A stretch of DNA of 64,000 nt from the IMG/VR virus record IMGVR_UViG_3300008952_002488, positions 96,001 through 160,000 of that record, one strand, 5' to 3'. Shown here one piece after another: positions 1-22,423 of this stretch. Position 1 is the first letter of the stretch. Each line of letters opens with the position of its first letter. Position numbers and translations under genes: made by a program. Below the pieces are notes generated by a model. It saw nothing but the letters and a program-made list of their open reading frames with translations, did no database searches and had not been told where the DNA came from. The DNA comes from a virus.

Positions 1-759
1 AAAGTCAAACGCAAAGGTAAGCGACCCTATGGAATCCGTCCACGTTTATCAAAAAAAGAAACTATAAAACAAAAGATTAGAAGAAAGAAGGCTGCCATAA
101 AGGCAGGTACTTATGATCCTAATAGTGAAGAGAGATTTACATTTCACGACAGCGACTTACGTTATAAACATATAGCCCCAGTGCAAAAAGAAAACACGAC
201 GGCTGCTGTGTTTTTTATTATGGACGTGTCAGGATCTATGACAAAGGCAAAAAAATATCTTGCTCGAAGCTTTTTCTTTCTCCTTTATCAATTTCTAAAT
301 CATCGTTATTCGGCGATAGATGTTATTTTTGTGTCCCATACTGCGGAAGCCAACGAAGTAAACGAGGAACAATTTTTTACACAGGTTCCTAATGGCGGAA
401 CACTTGTCTCTACTGGATTAAAAAAGGTTGAAGAGATTATTGAGAAACGATATCATCCTAATAACTGGAACTTGTATACTTTTTATTGTGGGGATGGAGA
501 CAATTGGCCAATCGACAATAAAGAATCTCTAGCCAACTTTCGAAAGTTAAAAGATATAAACCAAATGATGTGTTACACCGAGATTGGAGAAATGAGAGGA
601 GTAAGTGATGCTTACTTATTTTCAGGTAAAGCAGAAAAGAAATTATGGGACTGGCTAAAGCTGATAGAAGATAAAGACTTTAAGCGAATAAGGATTGTGA
701 ACCATAAGGACATATGGGCTTCCTTTAAAAAATTGTTCGGGGGAAATAATAATGTCTGA
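1..759 (+). CDS. yeaH: YeaH/YhbH (DUF444) vWA-domain protein, 5' truncated by the window edge
   Basis: Frame is open from base 1 (KVKRKGKRPYGIRPRLSKK...FHDSDLRY); contains the family motifs FIMDVSGSM, GGTLVSTG, YHPNNWNLY and DGDNW; lies next to spoVR and prkA. Confidence 0.9.
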   Translation, partial: KVKRKGKRPYGIRPRLSKKETIKQKIRRKKAAIKAGTYDPNSEERFTFHDSDLRYKHIAPVQKENTTAAVFFIMDVSGSMTKAKKYLARSFFFLLYQFLNHRYSAIDVIFVSHTAEANEVNEEQFFTQVPNGGTLVSTGLKKVEEIIEKRYHPNNWNLYTFYCGDGDNWPIDNKESLANFRKLKDINQMMCYTEIGEMRGVSDAYLFSGKAEKKLWDWLKLIEDKDFKRIRIVNHKDIWASFKKLFGGNNNV

Positions 760-2068
760 TTGGTCTATGGAAGAGCTTCATGAATGGGATACAAAGATTT
801 GTGCGCTTGGCCAAGCAATGGATCTTGACTGGTATCCTATTGAGTATGAAATATGTGACTATAAAGAAATGATTGGACATATGGCATACACAGGGCTACC
901 CACACATTATCGCCATTGGTCATATGGAAAAGCATTTGATAGAATCCAGACAGAATACAATTTGGGAATGTCTGGTCTGCCTTATGAGATGATTATTAAT
1001 TCCAACCCGAGCATCTCATATCTCATGACCGAAAATCCGATGGCCACCCACATACTTACAATGGCACATTGTGTCGGTCACAGTGACTTTTTTAAGAACA
1101 ACCGTATGTTTGCTGAGACCGGGGCGGATACCGCCTTAGACCGTTTTAAAGCTGCCGGTAAACGTATCAAAAAATACATGGAAGACCCGAACATTGGTAT
1201 AGACAAAGTAGAGAAAATTATTGATGCCTGTCACGCCATCCAATTTCAAGTTCCGAGAACGCCGGGAGTTAAACGAAGAGATCCCAAAAAACTGAAAAAC
1301 TATTATCAACAACTGATGCTTAATGATAAGACCGGCTATTGGGACAATTTTGATTTAGAAAAAATACCGCTAGAGCCTGATCAAAATGTTCTTAGGTTTA
1401 TTGCTGATCACAATCGATTTCTTGAGAATTGGGAAATAGACATAATCAACATTATTGAGCAGCAATCACGTTATTTTGTTCCACAAGCTTGTACTAAGAT
1501 TATGAATGAGGGTTGGGCTTGTTTTATACATGAAAAAATAGTTAATGCTCTTAGGCTTCCCGATGAATATCACATTTCTTTTATTCGACTACATAACCAA
1601 GTAGTAAGGGCACATCTGGGAAGAATAAACCCCTACCACCTAGGCTTTAAGATGTTTAAATATATTGAGAAACACAAAGGATTTGAAGAATGTATGCGTA
1701 TAAGAGAAACTTGTAACGATGAGACATTTTTAAAAACACATCTTAACTATGATTTATGTAAGGAACTGAATTTGTTTAGTTATGCATTTAATAAGAGCGA
1801 AGGGATCAATAGAATAACTGAAGTTTCTGCGGAAGATACTTGGAGAACTATTCGGGACGACCTAATTAGGAATGTAGGTCTCAATTCTATACCTGTTATA
1901 GTTGTGGAAGAATTGCTACAAGATGGCACACTAATTTTAAAACATGTGCATGATGGAAGGGATCTAGAATTGACAGAAGCAAATAAAGTGTTTGAGCACA
2001 TTAACAATTTGTGGGAAGGTGGGGTAAGATTCACTACAATAATAGAAGACGATCTTTGGGAGTTTTGA
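752..2068 (+). CDS. spoVR: SpoVR/YcgB family protein
   Basis: Motifs GLPTHYRHWSYGK, YEMIINSNP, MAHCVGHSDFFKNN, TKIMNEGWA and NPYHLG. Confidence 0.93.
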   Translation: MSDWSMEELHEWDTKICALGQAMDLDWYPIEYEICDYKEMIGHMAYTGLPTHYRHWSYGKAFDRIQTEYNLGMSGLPYEMIINSNPSISYLMTENPMATHILTMAHCVGHSDFFKNNRMFAETGADTALDRFKAAGKRIKKYMEDPNIGIDKVEKIIDACHAIQFQVPRTPGVKRRDPKKLKNYYQQLMLNDKTGYWDNFDLEKIPLEPDQNVLRFIADHNRFLENWEIDIINIIEQQSRYFVPQACTKIMNEGWACFIHEKIVNALRLPDEYHISFIRLHNQVVRAHLGRINPYHLGFKMFKYIEKHKGFEECMRIRETCNDETFLKTHLNYDLCKELNLFSYAFNKSEGINRITEVSAEDTWRTIRDDLIRNVGLNSIPVIVVEELLQDGTLILKHVHDGRDLELTEANKVFEHINNLWEGGVRFTTIIEDDLWEF

Positions 2069-2071
2069 TAG

Positions 2072-4015
2072 ATGACAAGAAATAACAAATCTGATAAGTT
2101 TCTGAAACTTGTTGGCAAACACCGTGAAAAAAAGAAAAAGAATAAGTTTCGTGGAACATTGTCCGATTATCTTAAAATAATAGAAGAAGACATTGGGGTT
2201 TCTAAACTCGCCCACCGAAGACTATTTGATGCCATCATAAACCATGGCATTACAAAGATGTCAAAATCTTCGGATCGTTGTAATAAACTTTTCAACGGCG
2301 AGAAGATAAGAACATATGATTATTTCCAAAGCAAGTTTTTTGGAATGGAGAGATCTCTAGCAAAGATTATGAGGTTCCTCCGTTCAGCAGCACTGAAGGG
2401 AGAAGAAAGTCGCCAGGTTCTTTTACTGCTGGGCCCAGTTGGTGCTGGCAAGTCTGCACTGATGGAACACATTAAAGGAGCCCTGGAAGAATGTGATCCA
2501 ATGTATCACATTGATGGGTGTCCTGTCCACGAGGAACCCCTCCACCTCATTCCTCGCTCTCTTCGGGAGGAGTTTCAAAAAATATATGGGATTCGCATTG
2601 AGGGGGACTTGTGTCCTGTTTGTAGGTTTAGATTAAAGGAAGAATTTGGCAGCGATTATACATCAATGCCCATTACGCAGTCATCTTTTTCTGTTCGTGG
2701 TAGACGTGGTGTAGGAGTTGTTCCACCAATGGACGCAAATAGTCAGGATGTGACAATTTTGGTCGGCAGCGAAGATATATCCAAATTAGATTTATACCCC
2801 GAAGATGACCCCAGGGTCCTTTCTTTAAACGGGGCGTTTAATGTTGGAAATAGAGGTATCGTAGAGTTCGTTGAAGTCTTTAAAAACGAAATTGAATTCT
2901 TACACACCATGATTACTGCCACTCAAGAGAAAGCTGTTCCTTCGCCAGGAAAAGGTCCCATGATATATTTTGATGGGGTTATCTTGGCGCACTGTAATGA
3001 GGCGGAATGGAACAAGTTTAAGTCAGAAAATACAAATGAAGCTATCTTGGATAGAATAGTTAGAGTAAATGTGCCGTACTGTTTGGAAGTAACTGAAGAA
3101 ATAAAGATTTATGAAAAAATGTTGGGACTATCTGACTTCGATGGTCACATTGCACCGCATACACTTGAGATTGCTTCGATGTTTGCTGTGTTAAGTCGAT
3201 TGCGTCCGTCCAATAAAGTAGATGCTCTTACTAAGATGAAATTATATGATGGTAAAGATGTGATCGAAAAGGGGCATGTAAAGAAAATAGACATTAATGA
3301 CTTGAGAGATGAGGCACGAGATGAAGGGATGACCGGGATCTCTACAAGATTCATCATGAAAGCAATTGATTCGGCATTGTCAGATAGTGAGAAAAATATG
3401 GTAACCCCCATATCCATCCGAGAAACGCTTATAAAGCAAGTCAAAGACCAAATAGTGGTAGAAGACGATAGAAATCGGTACCTTGATTTCCTTGGAAAGA
3501 CCCTTCACGATGAATATTTGAATATCTTAGAGAAAGAAATCACAAAAGCATTCGTTTCTGCCTATGATGAACAGGCAGAAGCCTTATTTAACAACTATCT
3601 GGACCATGCAGAAGCATATGTGAACATGTCCACTGTTAAAGATGCCATCACAAACGAAGAAATAACACCAGATGACAAATTTATGGAGTCAATTGAGGAA
3701 CAAATTGGAATTACTGGTACTTCTAAAGAGAATTTCCGAGTTGATATCACTGCATACATGTTTTCTAAGCTTCGGAGAGGCGAAAAAGTCGATTGGCAGT
3801 CGTATGCGCCACTCAAAGAGGCAATTGAGAGTAAATTGACCTCTTCAGTCAAGCAAATTTCACGAATTGTGACCAAATCCAAGTCTAGAGACAAAAAACA
3901 GCAAGGAAAGTACAATGAAATGGTAAAAACCTTGATTGATGAGTATGGATACGACGAAAACTCAGCAGAAGAGGTCATAAAGTTCGCCGCAAACAACTTA
4001 TGGCGAGATAGTTAG
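2072..4015 (+). CDS. prkA: PrkA/YeaG AAA+ ATPase (annotated serine protein kinase)
   Basis: Walker A GPVGAGKS, Walker B region GNRGIVEFVEVFK, NEAILDRI, GMTGISTRF; 647 aa. Confidence 0.95.
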   Translation: MTRNNKSDKFLKLVGKHREKKKKNKFRGTLSDYLKIIEEDIGVSKLAHRRLFDAIINHGITKMSKSSDRCNKLFNGEKIRTYDYFQSKFFGMERSLAKIMRFLRSAALKGEESRQVLLLLGPVGAGKSALMEHIKGALEECDPMYHIDGCPVHEEPLHLIPRSLREEFQKIYGIRIEGDLCPVCRFRLKEEFGSDYTSMPITQSSFSVRGRRGVGVVPPMDANSQDVTILVGSEDISKLDLYPEDDPRVLSLNGAFNVGNRGIVEFVEVFKNEIEFLHTMITATQEKAVPSPGKGPMIYFDGVILAHCNEAEWNKFKSENTNEAILDRIVRVNVPYCLEVTEEIKIYEKMLGLSDFDGHIAPHTLEIASMFAVLSRLRPSNKVDALTKMKLYDGKDVIEKGHVKKIDINDLRDEARDEGMTGISTRFIMKAIDSALSDSEKNMVTPISIRETLIKQVKDQIVVEDDRNRYLDFLGKTLHDEYLNILEKEITKAFVSAYDEQAEALFNNYLDHAEAYVNMSTVKDAITNEEITPDDKFMESIEEQIGITGTSKENFRVDITAYMFSKLRRGEKVDWQSYAPLKEAIESKLTSSVKQISRIVTKSKSRDKKQQGKYNEMVKTLIDEYGYDENSAEEVIKFAANNLWRDS

Positions 4016-4095
4016 AAAAAAACCCAGTATTTTCAGTACTTTAGCTAAAATAGCCGAAAAAGTCATATTTTTGCCCACTTTTGTCCCTAAAAAAG

Positions 4096-4124
4096 TTGAC
4101 AGACCCCTAATCCATGATACTATA
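4096..4124 (+). promoter_or_regulatory. sigma70-type (early) promoter with extended -10
   Basis: TTGACA 4096-4101, 16-nt spacer, TGA-TACTAT 4115-4123; followed by AAGGGAGAG SD and ATG 4145. Confidence 0.75.
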
Positions 4125-4144
4125 CATATGTAAGGGAGAGAGAT

Positions 4145-5053
4145 ATGGGTCGTACCAACCAATGTCAGGCTTGTGGGGATTGGGGTCACAATCGCCGTGG
4201 CTGCCCAGCAATCAAAGCAGCCCACGCCAGAGTTGAGAGCCTTGGGGAGAAGTACGGCATCGTGCTTTCGGAAGATGAGCGTGCTTACGCTTCCACTTCT
4301 TGGATCACCAAGATCAACGAGGCAGCCAGTGCTGCCGGCAACGCCGAGGACGAAGTTAACTACCGTGAGCGGTGGTATTGGGAAGAGCTTGAAGTGCGCA
4401 AGATTGCCCAGGCTCGCAAGAACAAGCGTGGCCGCACCTGCGGCTTCTGCGGCGAGGGCGGACATAACGCTCGTACCTGCGAACACAAGAAGCAGCACCG
4501 CAAGGACTGCAATGCCATGCAAAGTCTGGCTCACCGAGTTGTCGCTGCCTGCCTGAGCAAAGCAGGTCTCGTTCCCGGCGCTCTGATGCGGCTTCGGGAT
4601 TGGAGCATGGACAAGGATGATTACGAACAAAAGATGTGCATGGTTATGGGCATCAACTGGGAGCGGGTTGCCGACCCTGGTTATGACCACGACCATGGTT
4701 CGCCTCGCCGCTTAGACAGTTGGTTCAAAGGTCCAATCATCAAGGTTCGTAAGCCTGACGGTCAAGAGGGTTACCTTCGGATTCCTCAAAACATCAAGCA
4801 GCAAAGCCACTACAACTACTTTGAGAAGGAACCGGCTCAGTTCGGTTTGGTGAGCGGTGTGGTCGGTGGTCCTGTCAACAAGGACAGCGGCTGGAAGGGT
4901 GACAACGTGACCCTACTCAGCCCCGCTGCCCACGGGGTTTACCACTGGGGTGTCAACAAAGACGACGGCTCGGGCGAGCGAATTGTTGATGCTGACCTTG
5001 AGCCAGAAATCAACAACCTCATCAACCAAGTTTCAAACTGGTCAGAACATTAG
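4145..5053 (+). CDS. Protein with two CCHC zinc knuckles (probable nucleic-acid-binding early protein)
   Basis: CQACGDWGHNRRGC and CGFCGEGGHNARTC both fit C-X2-C-X4-H-X4-C; has its own promoter and SD; visibly GC-richer than its flanks. Confidence 0.8.
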   Translation: MGRTNQCQACGDWGHNRRGCPAIKAAHARVESLGEKYGIVLSEDERAYASTSWITKINEAASAAGNAEDEVNYRERWYWEELEVRKIAQARKNKRGRTCGFCGEGGHNARTCEHKKQHRKDCNAMQSLAHRVVAACLSKAGLVPGALMRLRDWSMDKDDYEQKMCMVMGINWERVADPGYDHDHGSPRRLDSWFKGPIIKVRKPDGQEGYLRIPQNIKQQSHYNYFEKEPAQFGLVSGVVGGPVNKDSGWKGDNVTLLSPAAHGVYHWGVNKDDGSGERIVDADLEPEINNLINQVSNWSEH

Positions 5054-5094
5054 AAAAGGGAATAAAAGCAAAAAGCTAGTTATATATTAATAGA

Positions 5095-5463
5095 ATGAAA
5101 AGCAGTAAAAAAGATAGCGATTTGTTTCAAAAGCTAAAAGAAGCTTTTGATTCACTTGCCCCAATGAAGCAAGATCCTTACCCCAAAGAGGCACTGGCTT
5201 TGGGGACATATGTTCGTGCAATAAGACACGACAAGTTAGGAGTCATTACTGATGCTTTTTATGGGGATCTTGATAAGGACGGGCAAAAGATAATTGTGTA
5301 TACAATATTATTGTTTCCTGGCACTAATCATTTTGGTTCCGCTGCTCATGAGAAATACTATGTAAGTAATGAGTATGAATATGATACAATTGCGTATCTT
5401 ATGCTACCGCCAACAGACCTTGCAAGCTTGACTGCTAAACTTGGGGGAGGGTTATTTTTATGA
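5095..5463 (+). CDS. hypothetical protein (possible SH3/KOW-like fold)
   Basis: ORF track; overlaps next gene via ATGA; upstream CTAGTTAT motif. Confidence 0.6.
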   Translation: MKSSKKDSDLFQKLKEAFDSLAPMKQDPYPKEALALGTYVRAIRHDKLGVITDAFYGDLDKDGQKIIVYTILLFPGTNHFGSAAHEKYYVSNEYEYDTIAYLMLPPTDLASLTAKLGGGLFL

Positions 5464-6227
5464 GAATAAAACCAGCAGTATTACTGTTTGACATGGACGG
5501 AACATTGACAGATGCCAGGCAACCAATCTCAGAAGATGTTGTCAAAGCACTAAGAAATGTCTCCACAGGTGTTAAAAAACACCTTGTTACGGGCTCAGAC
5601 CTAGCCAAGATCGAAGAACAAATTCCACCAAATATTCTTTTGGATATCTTTAGCCGAATATACGCCTGTAACGGGACAAGAGTGTGGAATTGTGATCTCG
5701 ATATGGATGACGAGAATCTGCCTATAGAACCAGAACTAATCCACAAGGTTACTCTAACAGATCATTATTCTGAGGCTGATATTAATCACATTATTAATGT
5801 CCTTCTCAAAACCGCTTACAAGACTCATACCAAAATTAAAACAGGAACATTTGTAGAATGGCGAGACAGTCAAATTAACTTTTCTGTGGTTGGGAGAAAC
5901 TGCACAACCGCCCAGCGAGAAGATTATGTGAAATGGGACAAGAAAAGTGGAGAAAGAGAAAAAATTATAGAACACCTCAGAAAAGAGTTTAAAGGCTGGG
6001 GACTTTCTTTTCGCCTAGGCGGGCAAATTTCCATTGATATCACAAGAGACGGCTGGGACAAAAGTTATGCATTTAAAAATATGACAGAAACGCCAGACCA
6101 GTGTGTATTTTTTGGAGATAGAATTTGCAAAGATGGTAATGATTTTGACATTGCTATGAAGTGCCACAAATACCATCATGTGGAAGGACCTGCTGATTTA
6201 ATTATCCAGCTACAGGAATATGTATGA
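5460..6227 (+). CDS. Eukaryote-type (PMM2/Sec53, HAD-IIB) phosphomannomutase
   Basis: LFDMDGTLT, GTFVEWRDSQINFSVVGR, GGQISIDI, GWDK and FFGD...GND match the PMM family motifs. Confidence 0.88.
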   Translation: MRIKPAVLLFDMDGTLTDARQPISEDVVKALRNVSTGVKKHLVTGSDLAKIEEQIPPNILLDIFSRIYACNGTRVWNCDLDMDDENLPIEPELIHKVTLTDHYSEADINHIINVLLKTAYKTHTKIKTGTFVEWRDSQINFSVVGRNCTTAQREDYVKWDKKSGEREKIIEHLRKEFKGWGLSFRLGGQISIDITRDGWDKSYAFKNMTETPDQCVFFGDRICKDGNDFDIAMKCHKYHHVEGPADLIIQLQEYV

Positions 6228-6443
6228 ATGATTACGGCATTTACGCTACTGGTTGGTATTCTATTAGCCCTATTTTTGCCGCTTGGAATACCGATGTTTA
6301 TCGCTTGGCTGCGATCAAGGCACGGAGAGAAGCAGCGAGAGTTGCTGAAGAAGGTAAAAAACAAAAGCAAATTAACTCTGCAAAATTTGCAGAAGGAACA
6401 ATTTCGATATATGCGTAGCAAGCGTTCACGAAAGGAAAAATAA
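6228..6443 (+). CDS. small membrane protein
   Basis: N-terminal hydrophobic helix followed by a basic tail; abuts both neighbours. Confidence 0.6.
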   Translation: MITAFTLLVGILLALFLPLGIPMFIAWLRSRHGEKQRELLKKVKNKSKLTLQNLQKEQFRYMRSKRSRKEK

Positions 6444-6623
6444 ATGAACTGCTTTCAACTCGAAGTCCGTGGCGTAACCTTTACCATTTGGGCTCCTACC
6501 CTGCGTGAAGCAGTGGAGACCTTTATGATTGATATGGACTTTTTTGAGGTCCCCAAGGAGTTGGTTGCTTGCGAACCAATTGCTACTTTTCCTATGCCTG
6601 AAAGTTGCCCAGGTGGCTTTTGA
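6444..6623 (+). CDS. hypothetical 59-aa protein (below the ORF-track cutoff)
   Basis: ATG 6444 immediately follows TAA; AAGGA upstream; MNCFQLEVRGVTFTIWAPTLREAVE...GGF; fills the gap exactly up to the next ATG. Confidence 0.6.
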   Translation: MNCFQLEVRGVTFTIWAPTLREAVETFMIDMDFFEVPKELVACEPIATFPMPESCPGGF

Positions 6624-7106
6624 ATGCCTTGGTTATTAATAGCTTTATTGGTTGGTTATGGCTATCCGTCTTACTTTAAAGAGGATCAGCGAGCAAACGC
6701 CGCTATTATAATAGACCAAGTAAACAAACTAGATTTAGACCCTCATTATTTTATTGCGATTGCTTGGGTTGAGTCACGAGTAAAAGCTAACAGAGTTTCA
6801 CACACGGGTGATTACGGAATATTTCAGATTAATTATAATTTTTGGGGTAAGAGGTGGGGATATACTTCAAAGAAAAAATTCTTGGTTGATATGTCAAGCC
6901 CTGGTCATGGTGTTGTCGCTGCTGCTGTAGTGTTAAAGGAAATGAAAAAATACAAAGCCTGTAAAGGGTTAAACTTGGCTGCCTGCTATAATGGCGGACC
7001 AGGCTGGCAGAAATCTAAAAATATAAAAAAGATTTTAGAATACGCAGAGAGGGTAAATTGTATTGCTCGTGCGTATAGAAAAAAATTCCCTAACTGGAAG
7101 CAATAA
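6624..7106 (+). CDS. Lytic transglycosylase (SLT domain) with N-terminal signal/anchor
   Basis: Catalytic AIAWVES, GIFQIN and AACYNGGPG motifs. Confidence 0.85.
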   Translation: MPWLLIALLVGYGYPSYFKEDQRANAAIIIDQVNKLDLDPHYFIAIAWVESRVKANRVSHTGDYGIFQINYNFWGKRWGYTSKKKFLVDMSSPGHGVVAAAVVLKEMKKYKACKGLNLAACYNGGPGWQKSKNIKKILEYAERVNCIARAYRKKFPNWKQ

Positions 7107-7111
7107 AAAAC

Positions 7112-7140
7112 TTGACCATCCCCTAATCCGTGCTATTATA
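7112..7140 (+). promoter_or_regulatory. sigma70-type early promoter upstream of a non-coding region
   Basis: TTGACC 7112-7117, 16-nt spacer, TGC-TATTAT; shares CCCCTAATCC with the 4096 promoter. Confidence 0.7.
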
Positions 7141-7141
7141 C

Positions 7142-7281
7142 TGTTGGAGGGAGAGACAGTCATAAACTCAGTGCCGAGCCACGACATTCGCCCTAGGGAT
7201 CTGTAGCGGCGGCACTGACAGATGGAGACGGTTATCATGCTCTCCCTCGGCTCTGAGTTTATGACTGTTTCCTTCTCAACA
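7142..7281 (+). ncRNA. Unknown structured RNA A: long terminal helix closing a multibranch domain
   Basis: 7156-7171 pairs perfectly with 7253-7268 (16 bp); GCCGAG/CTCGGC adds 6 bp; TGTTG/CAACA closes the ends; inner helices ATCTGT/ACAGAT and GGAGA/TCTCC; no + strand ORF in the track. Confidence 0.65.
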
Positions 7282-7294
7282 AGGGAAAGAAATC

Positions 7295-7392
7295 TGAACT
7301 GATCATTTGGATAAGACTTCCCTGACCTGTCTCATCAGCGGGTAAATAAAAGACATAAGATGATGGATTGATTATCCTGATTCGGTTCACCA
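7295..7392 (+). ncRNA. Unknown structured RNA B: bulged long hairpin ending in ACCA
   Basis: TGAACTGATCA/TGATTCGGTTCA and GGATAA/TTATCC helices; inner TGTCT/AGACA with possible CATC/GATG pseudoknot. Confidence 0.45.
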
Positions 7393-7447
7393 CCGGAGCC
7401 TAATTGGAAGGTTGAAAATGGCGGTTCGATTCCGTCCTCCGGTTTCA
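7392..7447 (+). ncRNA. tRNA-like mini-RNA lacking an anticodon arm
   Basis: Acceptor ACCGGAG/CTCCGGT, D-like hairpin CCT-AATTGGA-AGG, T-arm GGCGG-TTCGATT-CCGTC, 3' T-TCA; followed by a T7 run. Confidence 0.6.
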
Positions 7448-7455
7448 TTTTTTTC

Positions 7456-7484
7456 TTGACTTCCTTTGTTTCCATGATAATATA
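7456..7484 (+). promoter_or_regulatory. sigma70-type early promoter
   Basis: TTGACT, 16-nt spacer, TGA-TAATAT; leader TAAGGGGGAGAGATATG is nearly identical to that of the 4145 gene. Confidence 0.75.
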
Positions 7485-7504
7485 CTAATGTAAGGGGGAG
7501 AGAT

Positions 7505-7978
7505 ATGAAGTTAGAAAACGCTCTCAAGAAAGTTCGCAATCGTGCTAAAATTGTAGACCGTGAGGTTTTCATTGAGCAGAATGACTATCACAACAATGGT
7601 CAGGTCAAAGTCTACATTCAGTTTGAAGGCTCCAACCAGCTTCTGTCATTTTGGACCAACAGGGACGGCAGCATTAGTGCTCCCCATGTGAAGCGTGCTG
7701 GTGAAGAGTCAGACCCTCACACGGACTACTTTCCAGGCTGCTTTTATGACAACATTACGCAAGCACTCAACACGCTCGCTCCGCTGCCGCCCAAATACTC
7801 GGTCGGTTCGCTAGTGCGCTTCAAAGATAACAAGCGCAACAATCGTTGGAAGTTGGCAGGCAAGGTTGCCTTGGTGATCCAAGCCGAAGCCGGCGGGAAC
7901 TACAAGGTTCAGTACGATGGTAGCGAAGACCGCTACAACCCCTTCTACTCCCAGCGTGACCTTGAGTTAGTTTCATAA
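7505..7978 (+). CDS. hypothetical early protein with C-terminal SH3/KOW-like segment
   Basis: Strong SD and own promoter; KYSVGSLVRF...GKVALV...YKVQY...DLELV pattern. Confidence 0.7.
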   Translation: MKLENALKKVRNRAKIVDREVFIEQNDYHNNGQVKVYIQFEGSNQLLSFWTNRDGSISAPHVKRAGEESDPHTDYFPGCFYDNITQALNTLAPLPPKYSVGSLVRFKDNKRNNRWKLAGKVALVIQAEAGGNYKVQYDGSEDRYNPFYSQRDLELVS

Positions 7979-7983
7979 AAAAC

Positions 7984-8012
7984 TTGACACCTGCCAAGGT
8001 CGTGATAATATA
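7984..8012 (+). promoter_or_regulatory. sigma70-type early promoter
   Basis: TTGACA, 16-nt spacer, TGA-TAATAT; AGGAGG SD before ATG 8030. Confidence 0.75.
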
Positions 8013-8029
8013 AGATACAAGGAGGAAAC

Positions 8030-8224
8030 ATGGCAAACTCTCTTAAAAAGTTCCGTGTTAAGTTCATGAAGGGGCATCTCGTTAACGGTTGTCTCCGGGT
8101 TGACCAGCAGGACCAAACAGTCCACAAGCGCACTGTTCATGCCCGCAACGACCTCGAAGCTATGCGCCAGGTTCGGAGTCAAGTTCCAGCTACTCACTCG
8201 ATGTGGGCACAGGAGGTTAGATAA
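8030..8224 (+). CDS. hypothetical small early protein
   Basis: AGGAGG SD, directly under the promoter. Confidence 0.7.
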   Translation: MANSLKKFRVKFMKGHLVNGCLRVDQQDQTVHKRTVHARNDLEAMRQVRSQVPATHSMWAQEVR

Positions 8225-8225
8225 G

Positions 8226-8540
8226 ATGGCTATTGCAAATCCCGAAGTTGAGTTTCACCTTCAAGACTTTGTTGGCGAGTGTGCAGAAATGCTCAACGAG
8301 CACTATAAAGTGAGACTTCCCAATTTGAGTGCTCCCGAGGTCAAAGTGTCCGAGGGCGGCAAGTTTTACAAGGTCTATAAAGATGAAGGTGAATACCACA
8401 AGAGTGTTTGGTTCTTCGTCAGTAAAGAGGACGGCTTGATTTGGAAGGCTGCCTCTTGGAAGGCTCCTGCTCGGAACTTCCCTCGTGGAAATATCCTTGA
8501 AGACAAAGCCAAAGACGTGATTGGGATCTACGGACTGTGA
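8226..8540 (+). CDS. conserved phage hypothetical protein (KAASWKAPA motif)
   Basis: Start re-called to ATG 8226; motif SVWFFVSKEDGLIWKAASWKAPARNFPRGNI resembles small proteins of aquatic phages. Confidence 0.7.
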   Translation: MAIANPEVEFHLQDFVGECAEMLNEHYKVRLPNLSAPEVKVSEGGKFYKVYKDEGEYHKSVWFFVSKEDGLIWKAASWKAPARNFPRGNILEDKAKDVIGIYGL

Positions 8541-8668
8541 GTTCGTTACTGCATACTCTTTTTGGGCTTTCCTTTGTTGGCGGGTCTATGTATTTGCTTT
8601 ATACAGCAATTCTAAGAGAAAGAGAAAGGCAGATGAATATGAAAAAGAAGAATACCCGGCGAAGATAA
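8537..8668 (+). CDS. small 43-aa membrane protein
   Basis: GTGA overlap with the previous stop; MSSLLHTLFGLSFVGGSMYLLYTAILRERERQMNMKKKNTRRR (TM helix plus basic tail). Confidence 0.55.
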   Translation: MSSLLHTLFGLSFVGGSMYLLYTAILRERERQMNMKKKNTRRR

Positions 8669-8832
8669 GCGTTACGGGTAAACCGGAGCCGATCTGGCAG
8701 GCAGCTAGAAAACGCCAGCGTCCCTACCTCCAGTAACCACATACCTTGGAAGAGTTGCGTGTGGAAAACGGTTTGTAGGGTTAGATACAAAACTAACAGG
8801 AATCCCGTAATCGTTCGGGTGAAAACTCTTCA
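8669..8832 (+). ncRNA. Unknown multibranch RNA with two predicted pseudoknots, directly upstream of tRNA-Gly
   Basis: TTACGGG/CCCGTAA, TAAACCG/CGGTTTG, CTGGC/GCCAG, CCACAT/GTGTGG and GTTAG/CTAAC helices; crossing pairs CCCTAC/GTAGGG and GAAGAGTT/AACTCTTC. Confidence 0.55.
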
Positions 8833-8838
8833 AAACTT

Positions 8839-8914
8839 GCGGATGTAACTCAGATGGTAGAGTGTTTGGTTGCCAATCAAAATGTCGTGGGTTCGAATCC
8901 CATCATCCGCTCCA
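8839..8914 (+). tRNA. tRNA-Gly(GCC)
   Basis: Full cloverleaf, GCGGATG/CATCCGC acceptor, loop TT-GCC-AA, U73, encoded CCA. Confidence 0.95.
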
Positions 8915-8917
8915 AAT

Positions 8918-8994
<77 letters not shown>

Positions 8995-9004
8995 AGGGGT
9001 TAAG

Positions 9005-9643
9005 ATGTTACGAGTCTTAGGAAAATTACCGAGAGAATTAGGAGTCGCTGTCAGCGGCGGACCAGACTCCATGGCAATTCTAGACTTTCTCAGCAACAAC
9101 CATGAGGTAACCGCAGTCTATTTTGACCACGGCACAGACTTCGGACGAAAATGTAAAAGATTTGTAAAGAACTTTTGCGATAATAGAGATATTCCTCTTG
9201 TTGTAGGTATTAATTATAATGGGTGTCCTCCGAAAAAATCGCTTGAAGAGCATTGGCGTGATGAACGCTATAAGTTCTTTCACAGTTTCGACATGGCTAT
9301 TGTTTCGGGTCACAACTTAGACGATGTGATTGAGTGGTTTTTATTCTCTTCTTTGCACGGACAGGGTAAACTTATGCCCTACAAGAATCAAAACGTTTAT
9401 AGACCGTTTATCTCCACCTCTAAACGCTCGCTAGAAGATTGGTGCGAACGTAAGGATGTGCCGTTTATGATTGACCCAGGGAATACCGATAGAAAGTTTA
9501 TGAGAAGCATTATCAGAAACGATATTATGCCTCATGCTCGCAAGGTAAATAAAGGGCTCGAAAAAACATTTAAAAAACTTGTAGAAAAGGAATATAATAA
9601 CTGTGGGGGATTAGCTCAATTGGTCAGAGCACTCGACTCATAA
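9005..9643 (+). CDS. tilS: tRNA(Ile)-lysidine synthetase TilS, catalytic domain only
   Basis: PP-loop VAVSGGPDS, EEHWRDERY, GHNLDDVIE, RPF, DPGN...RSIIR; start re-called to ATG 9005 after tRNA-Arg; 3' end overlaps tRNA(CAT). Confidence 0.9.
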   Translation: MLRVLGKLPRELGVAVSGGPDSMAILDFLSNNHEVTAVYFDHGTDFGRKCKRFVKNFCDNRDIPLVVGINYNGCPPKKSLEEHWRDERYKFFHSFDMAIVSGHNLDDVIEWFLFSSLHGQGKLMPYKNQNVYRPFISTSKRSLEDWCERKDVPFMIDPGNTDRKFMRSIIRNDIMPHARKVNKGLEKTFKKLVEKEYNNCGGLAQLVRALDS

Positions 9644-9681
9644 TCGATAGGTTCTGGGTTCAAGTCCCAGGTCCCCTACCA
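9605..9681 (+). tRNA. tRNA(CAT), most likely tRNA-Ile2 (lysidine)
   Basis: Cloverleaf; anticodon arm TCGA-CT-CAT-AA-TCGA resembles Ile2; lacks the fMet GGG/CCC anticodon stem; adjacent to tilS. Confidence 0.85.
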
Positions 9682-9682
9682 T

Positions 9683-9758
9683 GCCCGAATAGCTCAGATG
9701 GGAGAGCAGTTGATTTGTAATCATCAGGTCGTAGGTTCGAATCCTACTTTGGGCACCA
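9683..9758 (+). tRNA. tRNA-Thr(TGT)
   Basis: Cloverleaf, loop TT-TGT-AA, encoded CCA. Confidence 0.93.
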
Positions 9759-9761
9759 TAA

Positions 9762-9836
9762 GCGGCTATCGTATAATGGTTATTACCTCAGCCTTCCAAG
9801 CTGATGATCTCGGTTCGATCCCGAGTAGCCGCTCCA
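9762..9836 (+). tRNA. tRNA-Gly(TCC)
   Basis: Cloverleaf, TCAGC-CT-TCC-AA-GCTGA, U73, encoded CCA. Confidence 0.95.
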
Positions 9837-9860
9837 CACTATTTTATAAAGGAGAGAAAA

Positions 9861-9989
9861 ATGCCTAATCCAATCGCTTACACTAAAGAAATGCAGGAGG
9901 CTATGATCTCTACCTTGGAGGCTTTTGCAGTCAAGGTAAAAGAAATGGAAAAAAGAATAAAAGCCTTGGAGGAAAAAAAAGATGAATAA
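9861..9989 (+). CDS. small coiled-coil protein
   Basis: AAGGAG SD; start re-called to ATG 9861 because the track start lies inside the tRNA. Confidence 0.55.
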   Translation: MPNPIAYTKEMQEAMISTLEAFAVKVKEMEKRIKALEEKKDE

Positions 9990-10179
9990 ATTACTTAAAG
10001 CAGCGTTGAGTCATTACGAAGCCCAACGTGATGAGGCTTTGGCGGTTCTAGAAGTTTACTTAAATAATTCTGTCGGAATTGGTGAACATTCAGGATTAAT
10101 CGATGAAATCAAAAACTGGACAGAAAAGTTAACTGAGGCAGAGGAAAATATGGCGACAATTAAGCGTCACTTTCCATAG
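9982..10179 (+). CDS. conserved small phage protein (VGIGEH motif)
   Basis: GGAGG SD; helical hairpin with NSVGIGEHSGLIDEI. Confidence 0.65.
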   Translation: MNKLLKAALSHYEAQRDEALAVLEVYLNNSVGIGEHSGLIDEIKNWTEKLTEAEENMATIKRHFP

Positions 10180-10279
10180 CCCAACACTATTTAATACAGT
10201 TACCTCTCCTAATTGGTTTTGTACTTTGCAAGTTACAAATTGTTGTAATTAAGGACCAAGTTTATAGGAGGAAATATTT

Positions 10280-12520
10280 ATGGCTTTCGGTTTAGCAGGT
10301 GATAGTGGTTCTTTTCAGGCCAACATGGCAATGGTCGGTGGAATTGTCACAGGTTCTTCAGGGGAGTTTTTAGCACTTCCAGTTTCAGGAACAGTTCTTG
10401 GTGGATTAAGTAATTTAACCACGAACGAGTGGAGTCGCTTCTATCTTAGTGATAGTTTTGGTAACGCCTCTGGTTCTATTATTCAAGCTCTTAACTACTT
10501 GAGCGGAGCATTGAAGGATACCAATGGTGATGTTACTGGACCAAGTTCAGCGACTGACAACGCTGTTGTTCGTTTTGATGGTACAACTGGTAAACTTATT
10601 CAAAGTAATACTTTGGTGAGTTTTACTGACGCTGGTGAGTTCACTGGTGGTGAGGGTGAAAGTTATACATTCTCAGCTAATGGGCAAATTTCCGGCACTA
10701 ACAAAGTTATTGCTGGAACCGACGTTTCAGGCGCTGGCAATGTAGCTGGTGCATCTCTGACGTCGGAAGAGGCAACGATTTCTGTTGCCGGTGTTATTTC
10801 CGGTGCTGGCGCTGTCCAAGGACAAAAGCTCACCATTGCAAACAGCGATGTTGTTACAACCGCTGGTGCGGTTGCGGCAGTAACCACTGTTTCGGGTGCT
10901 TCGTCGCTGGCTGGTGCAAAACTAACCATCAACGGAACGGATGTTGTAACCCAGGCTGGTGCTCTTGTAGCTCCAACCACTGTTTCTGGTGCTGGTGCTG
11001 TCAGTGGACAGAACCTAGTGACAGAGGAAGCTACCATAACAGCCGCAGGTGTTATTTCTGGTGCTGGTGCTGTCTCAGGACAAGCACTTACTGTTGCCAA
11101 CCTCTTTAAGGTACAAAGCGACGGTGATGTGTCAGGTTCTGGTGCTGCACACTTTGTAAAAGCTGTTACTGGTTTATCTTTCGCTGCTTCGTCATCTTTG
11201 GTGGCCAAGACTACGGTCTCGGGTGCTGGCAATGTAGCTGGTGCATCTTTAACGACAGAAGAGGCAACAATCTCTGTTGCCGGTGTTGTTTCTGGTGCGG
11301 GTGCCGTACAGGGTGCGAGCCTAACAACCGAAGAAGCGACAATTTCTGTTGCCGGTGTTATGTCAGGCGCAGGTGCTGTACAAGGACAAAAGCTCACCAT
11401 TGCAAACAGCGATGTTGTTACAACCGCTGGTGCGGTTGCGGCAGTAACCACAGTTTCAGGTGCTGGCAATGTAGCTGGTGCATCTCTGACGACAGAAGAA
11501 GCAACAATTTCTGTTGCCGGTGTTATGTCAGGCGCAGGTGCTGTACAAGGTCAGTCACTCAAGGTTGCTAATATATTTAATGTTAATAAAAATGGTGTTG
11601 TTTCATCTTCAGGCGGTGGTACTTTCTTAGGAGATCTTTTCGCCAATGATATGAATGTCTCCGGTACTTTGACTGCTGAAACCTTTCAGCCAACTGCGCT
11701 CTCGGGTAATATTAAAATAAACCTTTTTACATCCAAGATTCTCAGTAATAATGCTATTGAAACCTCGGCATCTCTGTTAGCCAAGACCACAGTTTCAGGT
11801 GCTGGCAATGTAGCTGGTGCATCTCTGACGACAGAAGAAGCAACAATTTCTGTTGCCGGGGCAATCTCTGGCGCTGGGATAATTTCGGGAATGGCACTGG
11901 AGTTGGGCAACTCAATCATTGTTACCGATGAAAAGGCTATAACTAATGTGACAAGCATCTCTGGTGCTTCATCGCTTGCTGGTGCTAAGTTGACCATAAA
12001 TGGCGCTGATATAATATCACAAGCTGGTGCGGTTTCGGCAGTAACCACTGTTTCGGGTGCTGGACCGGGTGCATTTGGAGCTTTAACAACTGAAGAGGCA
12101 ACGATCTCTCTTGCCGGTGTTGTTTCTGGTGCTGGCGCTCTCCAAGGTCAAAGCCTCTCCGTCGCTGGCGGACAGGGCTCGATCAGTAGCGCAGGTGCCC
12201 TGGTTGCTGCGGGTGGAGCGCAGGTGGGCTCGCTCGAATCGCAAGGCGCAGTTAAAGTCTATGGTGAAGGCTCGCTTTCGGGCGGAGTCGGCGCTGGTGT
12301 TCATTGCTCGAACACGGGTAGTGCAAACGGCAGTAACCATAAGGCTGCTCTTTACATCTCAAGTAGTGATATCAGCACGGCGGCGAATGCTGCACTCATT
12401 CCAAGGATGGTTTTGCAAGGAACCAACGATGCAGGAGCTTTAAAGGATTTCATGATCTCAGTCTCTGGTGGAATGCTACAGGTTGTCGAGTTGACTCACG
12501 GAACAGCGTTACCAGTCTAA
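10280..12520 (+). CDS. Ser/Gly/Ala-repeat virion fibre-like protein
   Basis: GDVTGPSSATDNAVVRFDGTTGK fibre-type motif; about 15 (V/I/M)SGA repeats and 7 EEATI repeats; AGGAGG SD and TANTTA motif upstream. Confidence 0.75.
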   Translation: MAFGLAGDSGSFQANMAMVGGIVTGSSGEFLALPVSGTVLGGLSNLTTNEWSRFYLSDSFGNASGSIIQALNYLSGALKDTNGDVTGPSSATDNAVVRFDGTTGKLIQSNTLVSFTDAGEFTGGEGESYTFSANGQISGTNKVIAGTDVSGAGNVAGASLTSEEATISVAGVISGAGAVQGQKLTIANSDVVTTAGAVAAVTTVSGASSLAGAKLTINGTDVVTQAGALVAPTTVSGAGAVSGQNLVTEEATITAAGVISGAGAVSGQALTVANLFKVQSDGDVSGSGAAHFVKAVTGLSFAASSSLVAKTTVSGAGNVAGASLTTEEATISVAGVVSGAGAVQGASLTTEEATISVAGVMSGAGAVQGQKLTIANSDVVTTAGAVAAVTTVSGAGNVAGASLTTEEATISVAGVMSGAGAVQGQSLKVANIFNVNKNGVVSSSGGGTFLGDLFANDMNVSGTLTAETFQPTALSGNIKINLFTSKILSNNAIETSASLLAKTTVSGAGNVAGASLTTEEATISVAGAISGAGIISGMALELGNSIIVTDEKAITNVTSISGASSLAGAKLTINGADIISQAGAVSAVTTVSGAGPGAFGALTTEEATISLAGVVSGAGALQGQSLSVAGGQGSISSAGALVAAGGAQVGSLESQGAVKVYGEGSLSGGVGAGVHCSNTGSANGSNHKAALYISSSDISTAANAALIPRMVLQGTNDAGALKDFMISVSGGMLQVVELTHGTALPV
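10817..11859 (+). repeat. Exact intragenic direct repeats
   Basis: 10817-10887 = 11381-11451 (71 nt); 11447-11520 = 11786-11859 (74 nt). Confidence 0.85.
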
Positions 12521-22058: not shown

Positions 22059-22087
22059 TTGACAACTATTGCGTATTATTGTATAGT
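22059..22087 (+). promoter_or_regulatory. sigma70 promoter for tmRNA
   Basis: TTGACA, 17-nt spacer, TATAGT. Confidence 0.8.
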
Positions 22088-22097
22088 CTGATTATAA

Positions 22098-22423
22098 GGG
22101 GGTAACCGGTATCGATTGATGGGAAAATAGAAAAGGTGCAAGGGTGAGGGAAGCGTGGCTCACTAAAAACGCTTAAAACTTTAATCGCCAATGACGATTT
22201 CGAAATGGAGATGGCAGCTTAAAAACCTGACCTCCCATGAGGCGACGGCAGCCAATAAACAGAAAGCCGTATTTGGGTGTCCTAAGTGCTTTTGATTGTT
22301 TTAGCCGCAATAAAACGATCTAGTCAAGCGGGCTGTCTGACGAAAAAAACAGACCCAACCTTGTGAATGACCCCTTCTATAGAACTAGGCAAGACGGGAG
22401 TTCGATTCTCCCTACCTCCACCA
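22098..22423 (+). ncRNA. ssrA: tmRNA; tag reading frame 22187-22222 encodes ANDDFEMEMAA
   Basis: GGGGGTA/TACCTCC acceptor with G3-U, T-arm GGGAG-TTCGATT-CTCCC, ACCA end, pk1-like region, resume codon GCC. Confidence 0.95.

Follow-up and report, generated by a model that had tools for sequence, protein, structure and literature searches.

The tilS–tRNA overlap and its sequence support

The window analysed here is a 64,000-nt stretch of a 172-kb viral record that is about 60% complete and best represented in marine metagenomes. It contains a short gene for a predicted tRNA(Ile)-lysidine synthetase (mini-tilS) that lies within a tRNA cluster and runs without a stop into the tRNA gene behind it. 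The features discussed below are the following (window coordinates):

8839–8994, + strand: tRNA-Gly(GCC) and tRNA-Arg(UCU), upstream of tilS
8995–8999, + strand: Shine-Dalgarno-like AGGGG of tilS, directly after the CCA of tRNA-Arg
9005–9643, + strand: mini-tilS, single-domain tRNA(Ile)-lysidine synthetase by Pfam, TIGR02432 and PDB matches
9569–9575, + strand: candidate -35 element, TTTAAA (spacer 18) or TTAAAA (spacer 17), in the Phe189-Lys190 codons, with 4/6 matches; on weaker evidence than the -10 box
9593–9598, + strand: sigma70-type -10 box TATAAT, dual-coded as Tyr197-Asn198, with tRNA G1 at position +7
9605–9681, + strand: CAU tRNA, probably tRNA-Ile2, from ARAGORN, Rfam and stem comparison
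9641–9643, + strand: tilS stop TAA, equal to U36-A37-A38 in the anticodon loop of the tRNA
9683–9836, + strand: tRNA-Thr(UGU) and tRNA-Gly(UCC), 1 and 3 nt behind their neighbours and presumably co-transcribed with the CAU tRNA
22098–22423, + strand: phage tmRNA (ARAGORN, Rfam), with a tag that ends in Ala-Ala

The mini-tilS frame opens at the ATG at 9005 and holds 212 open codons, and it shares 39 nt with the CAU tRNA (tRNA nt 1–39). Exactly as the initial annotation had read from the letters, no in-frame stop precedes the tRNA, the final 12 sense codons are tRNA nt 1–36, the last of these codons carries C34 (9639) at its second position, and the stop falls in the anticodon loop. In the frame used here, this UAA is the first stop within the tRNA; the next frame stops at tRNA nt 8–10. 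We considered whether C34 has any particular significance where it lies, in the final codon, and rejected this, as its placement is forced by the tRNA sequence, and is rare.

Such a junction could in principle stem from misassembly or from a stop codon lost in this one genome, given that a stop at this place is found in most close relatives and that a single base change at 9604 would create a stop directly before the tRNA. We consider this extremely improbable, and as an assembly error it is already refuted: a contig from run X1, which may be the source sample, covers 8958–9633 at depth 22 with 0 differences, and one from run X8, from another study (depth 2.3), covers 9447–9599, also with 0 differences; the indel near 9595–9600 against which the initial annotation had cautioned is not seen in the X1 contig. 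The identical tilS–tRNA junction moreover occurs in another assembly (L025), even though the rest of that tilS is only 70–85% identical at the DNA level, and the exact TilS protein of the window is present in an ENA contig (P0149). In RNA runs, at most 0.14 of the words were present, as contigs.

Several observations concern the surroundings of the cluster. A nine-codon mini-ORF rich in Lys and Arg (8639–8668), whose ATG is kept in most relatives and whose stop is kept in all, runs into a highly conserved structured RNA (8639–8835 region) that ends 3–4 nt before the first tRNA. This RNA was found in 18 relatives, with 4 pairs showing two-sided changes, and its positions 8748–8757 can pair with 8824–8833; an Rfam search of 8540–8845 found no family. 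The region 8639–8835 may act as a leader-peptide switch, or as a novel noncoding RNA, in control of the transcript that carries tilS. Farther upstream (181–4015) lies a three-gene block that ends in a PrkA kinase (Pfam), and the two genes preceding prkA look like YeaH and SpoVR by eye.

A single-domain TilS and its probable substrate

The gene product is predicted to be the catalytic domain of TilS, which would form lysidine at C34. It matches Pfam ATP_bind_3 at 4.5e-29 and reaches 106.7 bits against TIGR02432 (cut-off 93.6), which covers the N-terminal PP-loop catalytic domain, and the SGGPDS motif is invariant. The best PDB matches (1wy5, 3a2k and 1ni5) are to solved enzymes of 317–464 aa and are confined to their N-terminal domain, with 1wy5 and 3a2k aligning up to residue 194. 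Most homologues are about 200 aa long. The TilS core likewise ends at about residue 198–200, the C-terminal domains of type I and type II enzymes (CTD1, CTD2) are absent, and residues 201–212 are tRNA-derived. An AlphaFold model had pLDDT below 50 from residue 135 and is uninformative on the tail.

At the other end of the gene, a GTG start at 8960 inside tRNA-Arg was rejected, because homologues begin at 9005 behind a conserved Shine-Dalgarno sequence, mostly AGGAG or AGGAA in relatives. Gene callers do extend mini-TilS N-terminally into the upstream tRNA (8960–9004 in the window; P0005, P0062 and P0064), and such extended starts are probably annotation artefacts. In most relatives the Shine-Dalgarno sequence begins at, or 1–2 bases past, the CCA of the upstream tRNA (Arg, Val or Lys). 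In a distant clade (L007–L016) with no tRNA nearby, a -35/-10 pair ends about 6 nt ahead of the tilS ATG, and by promoter position the tilS mRNA of that clade would be leaderless. AUA is avoided in tilS, with 0 of 10 Ile codons in the window gene and 40 of 514 in the clade (7.8%, versus 28.6% genome-wide); the message would thus be translatable without a lysidine-bearing tRNA. The complete lack of AUA is shared by 17 of 135 genes, and we rejected it as a tilS-specific trait.

The identity of the CAU tRNA is best judged from its stems. Initiator tRNAs are marked by C1:A72, three G-C pairs in the anticodon stem and A11-U24; the window tRNA instead reads G1-U72, C29-G30-A31 and C11-G24. Its anticodon stem pairs C29-G41 and G30-C40 are those of E. 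coli tRNA-Ile2, and differ from the elongator Met tRNA, which has C27-G43, U29-A41 and C30-G40 (PMC2500205). The CAU tRNA adjoins mini-tilS in many loci, on either side. These features make it the probable tRNA-Ile2 and the probable TilS substrate, and lysidine has been demonstrated on a phage CAU tRNA (PMC13191261). On both the gene and its probable substrate the initial annotation is borne out. E. coli TilS reads C4-G69 and C5-G68, determinants that vary between species (PMC12514573), whereas the window tRNA carries G4-C69 and G5-C68; the Met anti-determinants U4-A69 and A5-U68 are likewise absent, and C4 and C5 do occur in the CAU tRNA of some relatives (L028, L122). These two pairs would presumably go unread by a TilS that lacks the acceptor-binding domain. 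The L025 tRNA (L025:923–999) shows an acceptor-stem mismatch, A5 opposite C68, and the same tail recurs in P0123. Precursor bases G-2 and U-1 (9603–9604) can pair with C74 and A73, lengthening the acceptor stem, and TGT ahead of tRNA +1 recurs in many relatives; this pairing may affect RNase P.

Read-in across relatives is no commoner than chance

To place the overlap in context, we compared 40 distinct tilS ends sharing more than 60% identity (window included), 25 of them adjacent to a CAU tRNA and 15 not. The initial annotation had asked whether the overlap is conserved in related phages, and had counted relatives with a stop just before the tRNA against its own reading. Such relatives turn out to be common: at 13 of the 25 junctions tilS stops before the tRNA (six flush with tRNA +1, seven 9–11 nt ahead of it), and at the other 12 it reads in, by 2 nt (1 locus), 10 nt (6), 15 nt (1), 23 nt (1) or 39 nt (3), with one locus (L141), whose tRNA is cut by the contig end, assigned from translation. 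The anticodon loop and C34 are reached at only 3 of the 25, and two of those share one recombined allele, since the window and L025 agree over the last 120 nt (59/60 per block) and only at 70–85% in the rest. Protein tails tell the same story, with 57 of 81 tRNA-adjacent types (about 70%) stopping first and 5 of the 81 reaching the anticodon loop, two of these five being the window's own sequence. Because the loci are related and recombine, all such counts overstate independence.

Read-in alleles do recur. On a tree of codons 1–185, 8 changes are needed, at least 6 of them forced by supported branches, and read-in occurs in all three frames, the stop being whatever the tRNA offers in the frame concerned. 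Its frequency follows the distance between the -10 box described below and tRNA +1. With spacers of 5–8 nt, 8/8 loci read in (85–92% expected by chance); with spacers of 12–20 nt, 4/17 do so (neutral expectation 61–72%). A spacer of 6 nt, as in the window, would lack a stop by chance in about 85% of cases, and the read-in here does not exceed that expectation. Over all loci, read-in is no commoner than chance and the overlap design is not conserved; if anything, selection mildly favours a stop before the tRNA.

At other viral loci, 8 of 97 ORF–tRNA junctions read in, versus 12 of 25 at the tilS–tRNA junction. Viral ORFs that end 1–83 nt inside a downstream tRNA were seen in L163, L176, L178, L191, L194 and L243, and in L115 (about 3700–4650) a 297-aa gene unrelated to tilS, methyltransferase-like by eye, reads 15 nt into its own CAU tRNA and stops in the D arm.

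A conserved -10 box in the tilS tail

A sigma70-type -10 box is present in all 25 tRNA-adjacent loci (TATAAT in 20, TATACT in 4, TACAAT in 1), and a comparable box in only 1 of the 15 loci where the tRNA does not follow tilS. The variation keeps T1, A2 and T6, as in a promoter -10 hexamer. In the window, TATAAT with its 4/6 -35 candidate is among the top sigma70 scores of 3900–10400. Just four of the 53 two-fold codons that are conserved (K164, F189, Y197 and N198) reach a fixation of 95% or more, the Phe189 codon within the -35 candidate being TTT in 24/24 adjacent full-length loci; genome-wide, Tyr-Asn is encoded as TATAAT in 40 of 89 cases.

One could hold that there is no cis-element at all, and that Tyr-Asn reflects protein constraint and shared ancestry in an AT-rich genome, with the overlap a product of compaction drift. 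The loci are indeed related, codons 186–198 are conserved as a block, and across five independent tree pairs box and adjacency agree by 4.8 to 0 with p 0.06, there being too few pairs to reach 0.05. Box loss from non-adjacent tilS may also merely follow rearrangement breakpoints. Two observations nonetheless make this reading very unlikely. TilS proteins that are not followed by the tRNA drop the Asn freely, and where a CAU tRNA follows non-tilS DNA, a TAnnnT hexamer still lies 5–10 nt upstream in 13 of 14 loci, some of them related, against 2.9 expected from shuffles. This retention after non-tilS DNA is a stronger test than the independent tree pairs. As a negative control, the same 5–10 nt upstream of the first tRNA of the cluster showed a -10 box in 0 of 13 loci.

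The position of the box would suit a promoter with a very short leader. Box and tRNA are separated by 5, 6, 8, 12 or 16–20 nt across relatives and by 6 nt in the window. E. coli RNA polymerase starts 6, 7, 8 or 9 nt after the -10 in 8, 55, 29 and 7% of cases (PMC5730371). G9605, the tRNA G1, is at position 7, the modal start for the E. coli enzyme. A point against the promoter reading is that 5-nt spacers put tRNA +1 at position 6, where the E. coli enzyme initiates in only about 8% of cases. A search for the host with the tRNA sequence returned one 507-nt Emticicia MAG contig, which is not usable.

It is also conceivable, if unlikely, that the box is real without being a start site, acting as a -10-like sigma pause or capture element or as an AU-rich RNA processing signal, with all tRNA coming from the long transcript and TilS made co-transcriptionally before processing. 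Sequences resembling a -10 in transcribed DNA cause sigma-dependent pausing (PMC9191641), and the variable distance to the tRNA (5–20 nt) and the weak -35 fit such a role; the window -35, a 4/6 match without a TG extended -10, is not an enriched -35 class in the genome and is unlike that of the clear promoters of the phage (TTGACA-16/17). Against this, the variation is of the promoter -10 type, the box is never less than 5 nt from the tRNA, and six distant phages (L126, L128, L132, L044, L050, L055) add a hexamer, TGTAAA, at exactly 16 nt upstream of a TAnnnT that sits 7–11 nt ahead of their CAU tRNA. The phage tmRNA offers a further parallel, for its own consensus promoter (TTGACA-17-TATAGT, within 22059–22097) ends 10 nt upstream of the gene, so that the tmRNA would also have a very short leader.

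Fate of cut tilS messages

A cut by RNase P at tRNA +1 would leave a read-through message without a stop codon. This part of the initial annotation holds, and the phage does encode the tmRNA that it had named. The message cut at tRNA +1 encodes TilS residues 1–200, the usual length in the family. Its product could be tagged for decay by tmRNA, an Ala-Ala-type tag end being recognised by ClpX and ClpA (PMC3985003), or released untagged by ArfA- or ArfB-type rescue (PMC8012679). No phage ArfB/release factor or SmpB was found in G000; as that genome is about 60% complete, the absence is no evidence either way. We examined the tmRNA as a specific partner of read-in and rejected the idea for want of a link: 18 of 20 related viral records carry it, and tilS does not read in at any of them (the two metagenome read-in loci fall outside this count).

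The initial annotation went on to propose that each transcript yields either tilS mRNA or tRNA plus a tagged non-stop product, a coupling of enzyme and substrate. Taken as a selected design, this would be akin to the control of arfA. Read-in at about half of the adjacent loci, recurring across the tree, would suit this proposal, as would the commonest stop-first allele, whose stop ends exactly at the cut site (gap 0), the kind of tag that the tmRNA encodes and the finding of no terminator at the tilS–tRNA junction. Selected coupling is unsupported because the frame closes ahead of the tRNA at 13 of the 25 loci and in about 70% of tails; in addition, read-in shows no excess over chance, its length varies from 2 to 39 nt, the tmRNA occurs in records without read-in, and the unrelated L115 gene also reads into a CAU tRNA. 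A separate promoter for the tRNA, to which the conserved box points, would moreover break the either/or logic. What survives of the proposal is thus the TilS domain, its probable substrate and the non-stop logic, and we regard the coupling itself as quite unlikely. With the Shine-Dalgarno sequence right behind the upstream CCA, processing would probably inactivate the tilS message from its 5' end, and would do so in overlapping and non-overlapping alleles alike.

A probable tRNA promoter inside tilS

Judging from sequence comparison, the tRNA block probably has its own sigma70-type promoter in the tail of tilS, with the overlap a tolerated side effect. Transcription of the CAU tRNA and its downstream neighbours would begin at a promoter whose -10 is the Tyr-Asn pair that ends the TilS core, while tilS would depend on a start farther upstream and follow tRNA-Gly and tRNA-Arg in the transcript. 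Between the -10 box and tRNA +1 there would then be a free spacer of 5–20 nt. A long spacer would usually hold the tilS stop; one cut by deletion to 5–8 nt, as in the window, would leave hardly any room for it. As the short leader fits no stop, tilS would borrow one from the tRNA, its frame ending at whichever stop the tRNA offers and the extra 12 residues forming a tolerated tail.

As no terminator was found at the junction, some long transcripts will include the tRNA. Such a transcript would yield full-length TilS where translation is completed ahead of the RNase P cut; otherwise tmRNA would clear the non-stop message, or an alternative rescue factor would free its product without a tag and at native length. 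Cutting may therefore trim TilS output slightly, without rationing the tRNA, and with its own promoter the tRNA block need not draw its supply at the cost of tilS mRNA.

A more specific version, which we regard as possible but doubtful, is that transcription starts exactly at G1, giving a leaderless, triphosphate-bearing tRNA-Ile2 that is independent of RNase P in a bacterial cell; rescue or tagging of any read-through tilS messages that are cut would be a by-product. The phage would then not need host RNase P to produce its AUA-reading tRNA, and this would be a natural leaderless tRNA in a bacterial system, which we otherwise found described for Nanoarchaeum only. With the tRNA promoter inside tilS, an apparent feedback switch would become a layout constraint, and it would be explained why the TilS tail has Tyr-Asn or Tyr-Thr only when the tRNA follows. 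The natural allele series, with stops before the tRNA, flush with it or 2–39 nt inside it, is a ready set for studying competition among ribosome, RNase P and tmRNA on a tRNA-fused message.

Comparison with known systems

The literature searched, mostly outside subscription journals, yielded no paper on a tilS–tRNA overlap, an embedded promoter of this kind or a leaderless phage tRNA. Phage-encoded TilS is on record in Pseudomonas phages PA5oct and MIJ3 (PMC6892783), whose enzymes are likewise single-domain and about 200 aa long and represent the nearest cultured relative (39.5% identical over 196 residues). PA5oct has no tRNA annotated within 2.5 kb, whereas the window tilS is flanked by tRNA genes within their cluster and shares sequence with the CAU tRNA. 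Bacterial TilS of type I (E. coli, G. kaustophilus) and type II (A. aeolicus) shares the PP-loop domain with mini-TilS (PMC12514573), but those enzymes have C-terminal tRNA-binding domains, both of which mini-TilS lacks, and the G4-C69 and G5-C68 of the window tRNA contrast with the pairs that the E. coli enzyme reads.

The closest precedent for a cut message is that of arfA and brfA, in which cleavage before the stop gives a tmRNA-tagged product whose truncated length is functional (PMC8012679), as would hold for tilS too. There, however, a built-in hairpin serves as the truncation signal and the gene encodes a rescue factor, whereas tilS read-in is a minority state of variable length with no evident feedback logic, and no conserved truncation signal precedes the stop, which at 13 of 25 loci comes before the cut site. 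In Nanoarchaeum equitans, which makes leaderless tRNAs, the promoter is also placed for a start at tRNA +1 (PMC10100707), but that system is archaeal and genome-wide, with a fixed distance and no RNase P; here a single phage tRNA block is concerned and the start site is a prediction. The fixed promoter distance at every tRNA gene is not found here, the spacer being 5–20 nt and the first tRNA of the cluster having no box.

Protein genes in tRNA clusters are known to borrow a stop from a tRNA, and tRNA punctuation is familiar from mitochondria; in both, the ORF likewise ends at or inside the downstream tRNA. Unlike other stop-borrowing genes, tilS encodes the probable modifying enzyme of the tRNA it runs into, and seems to carry that tRNA's promoter.
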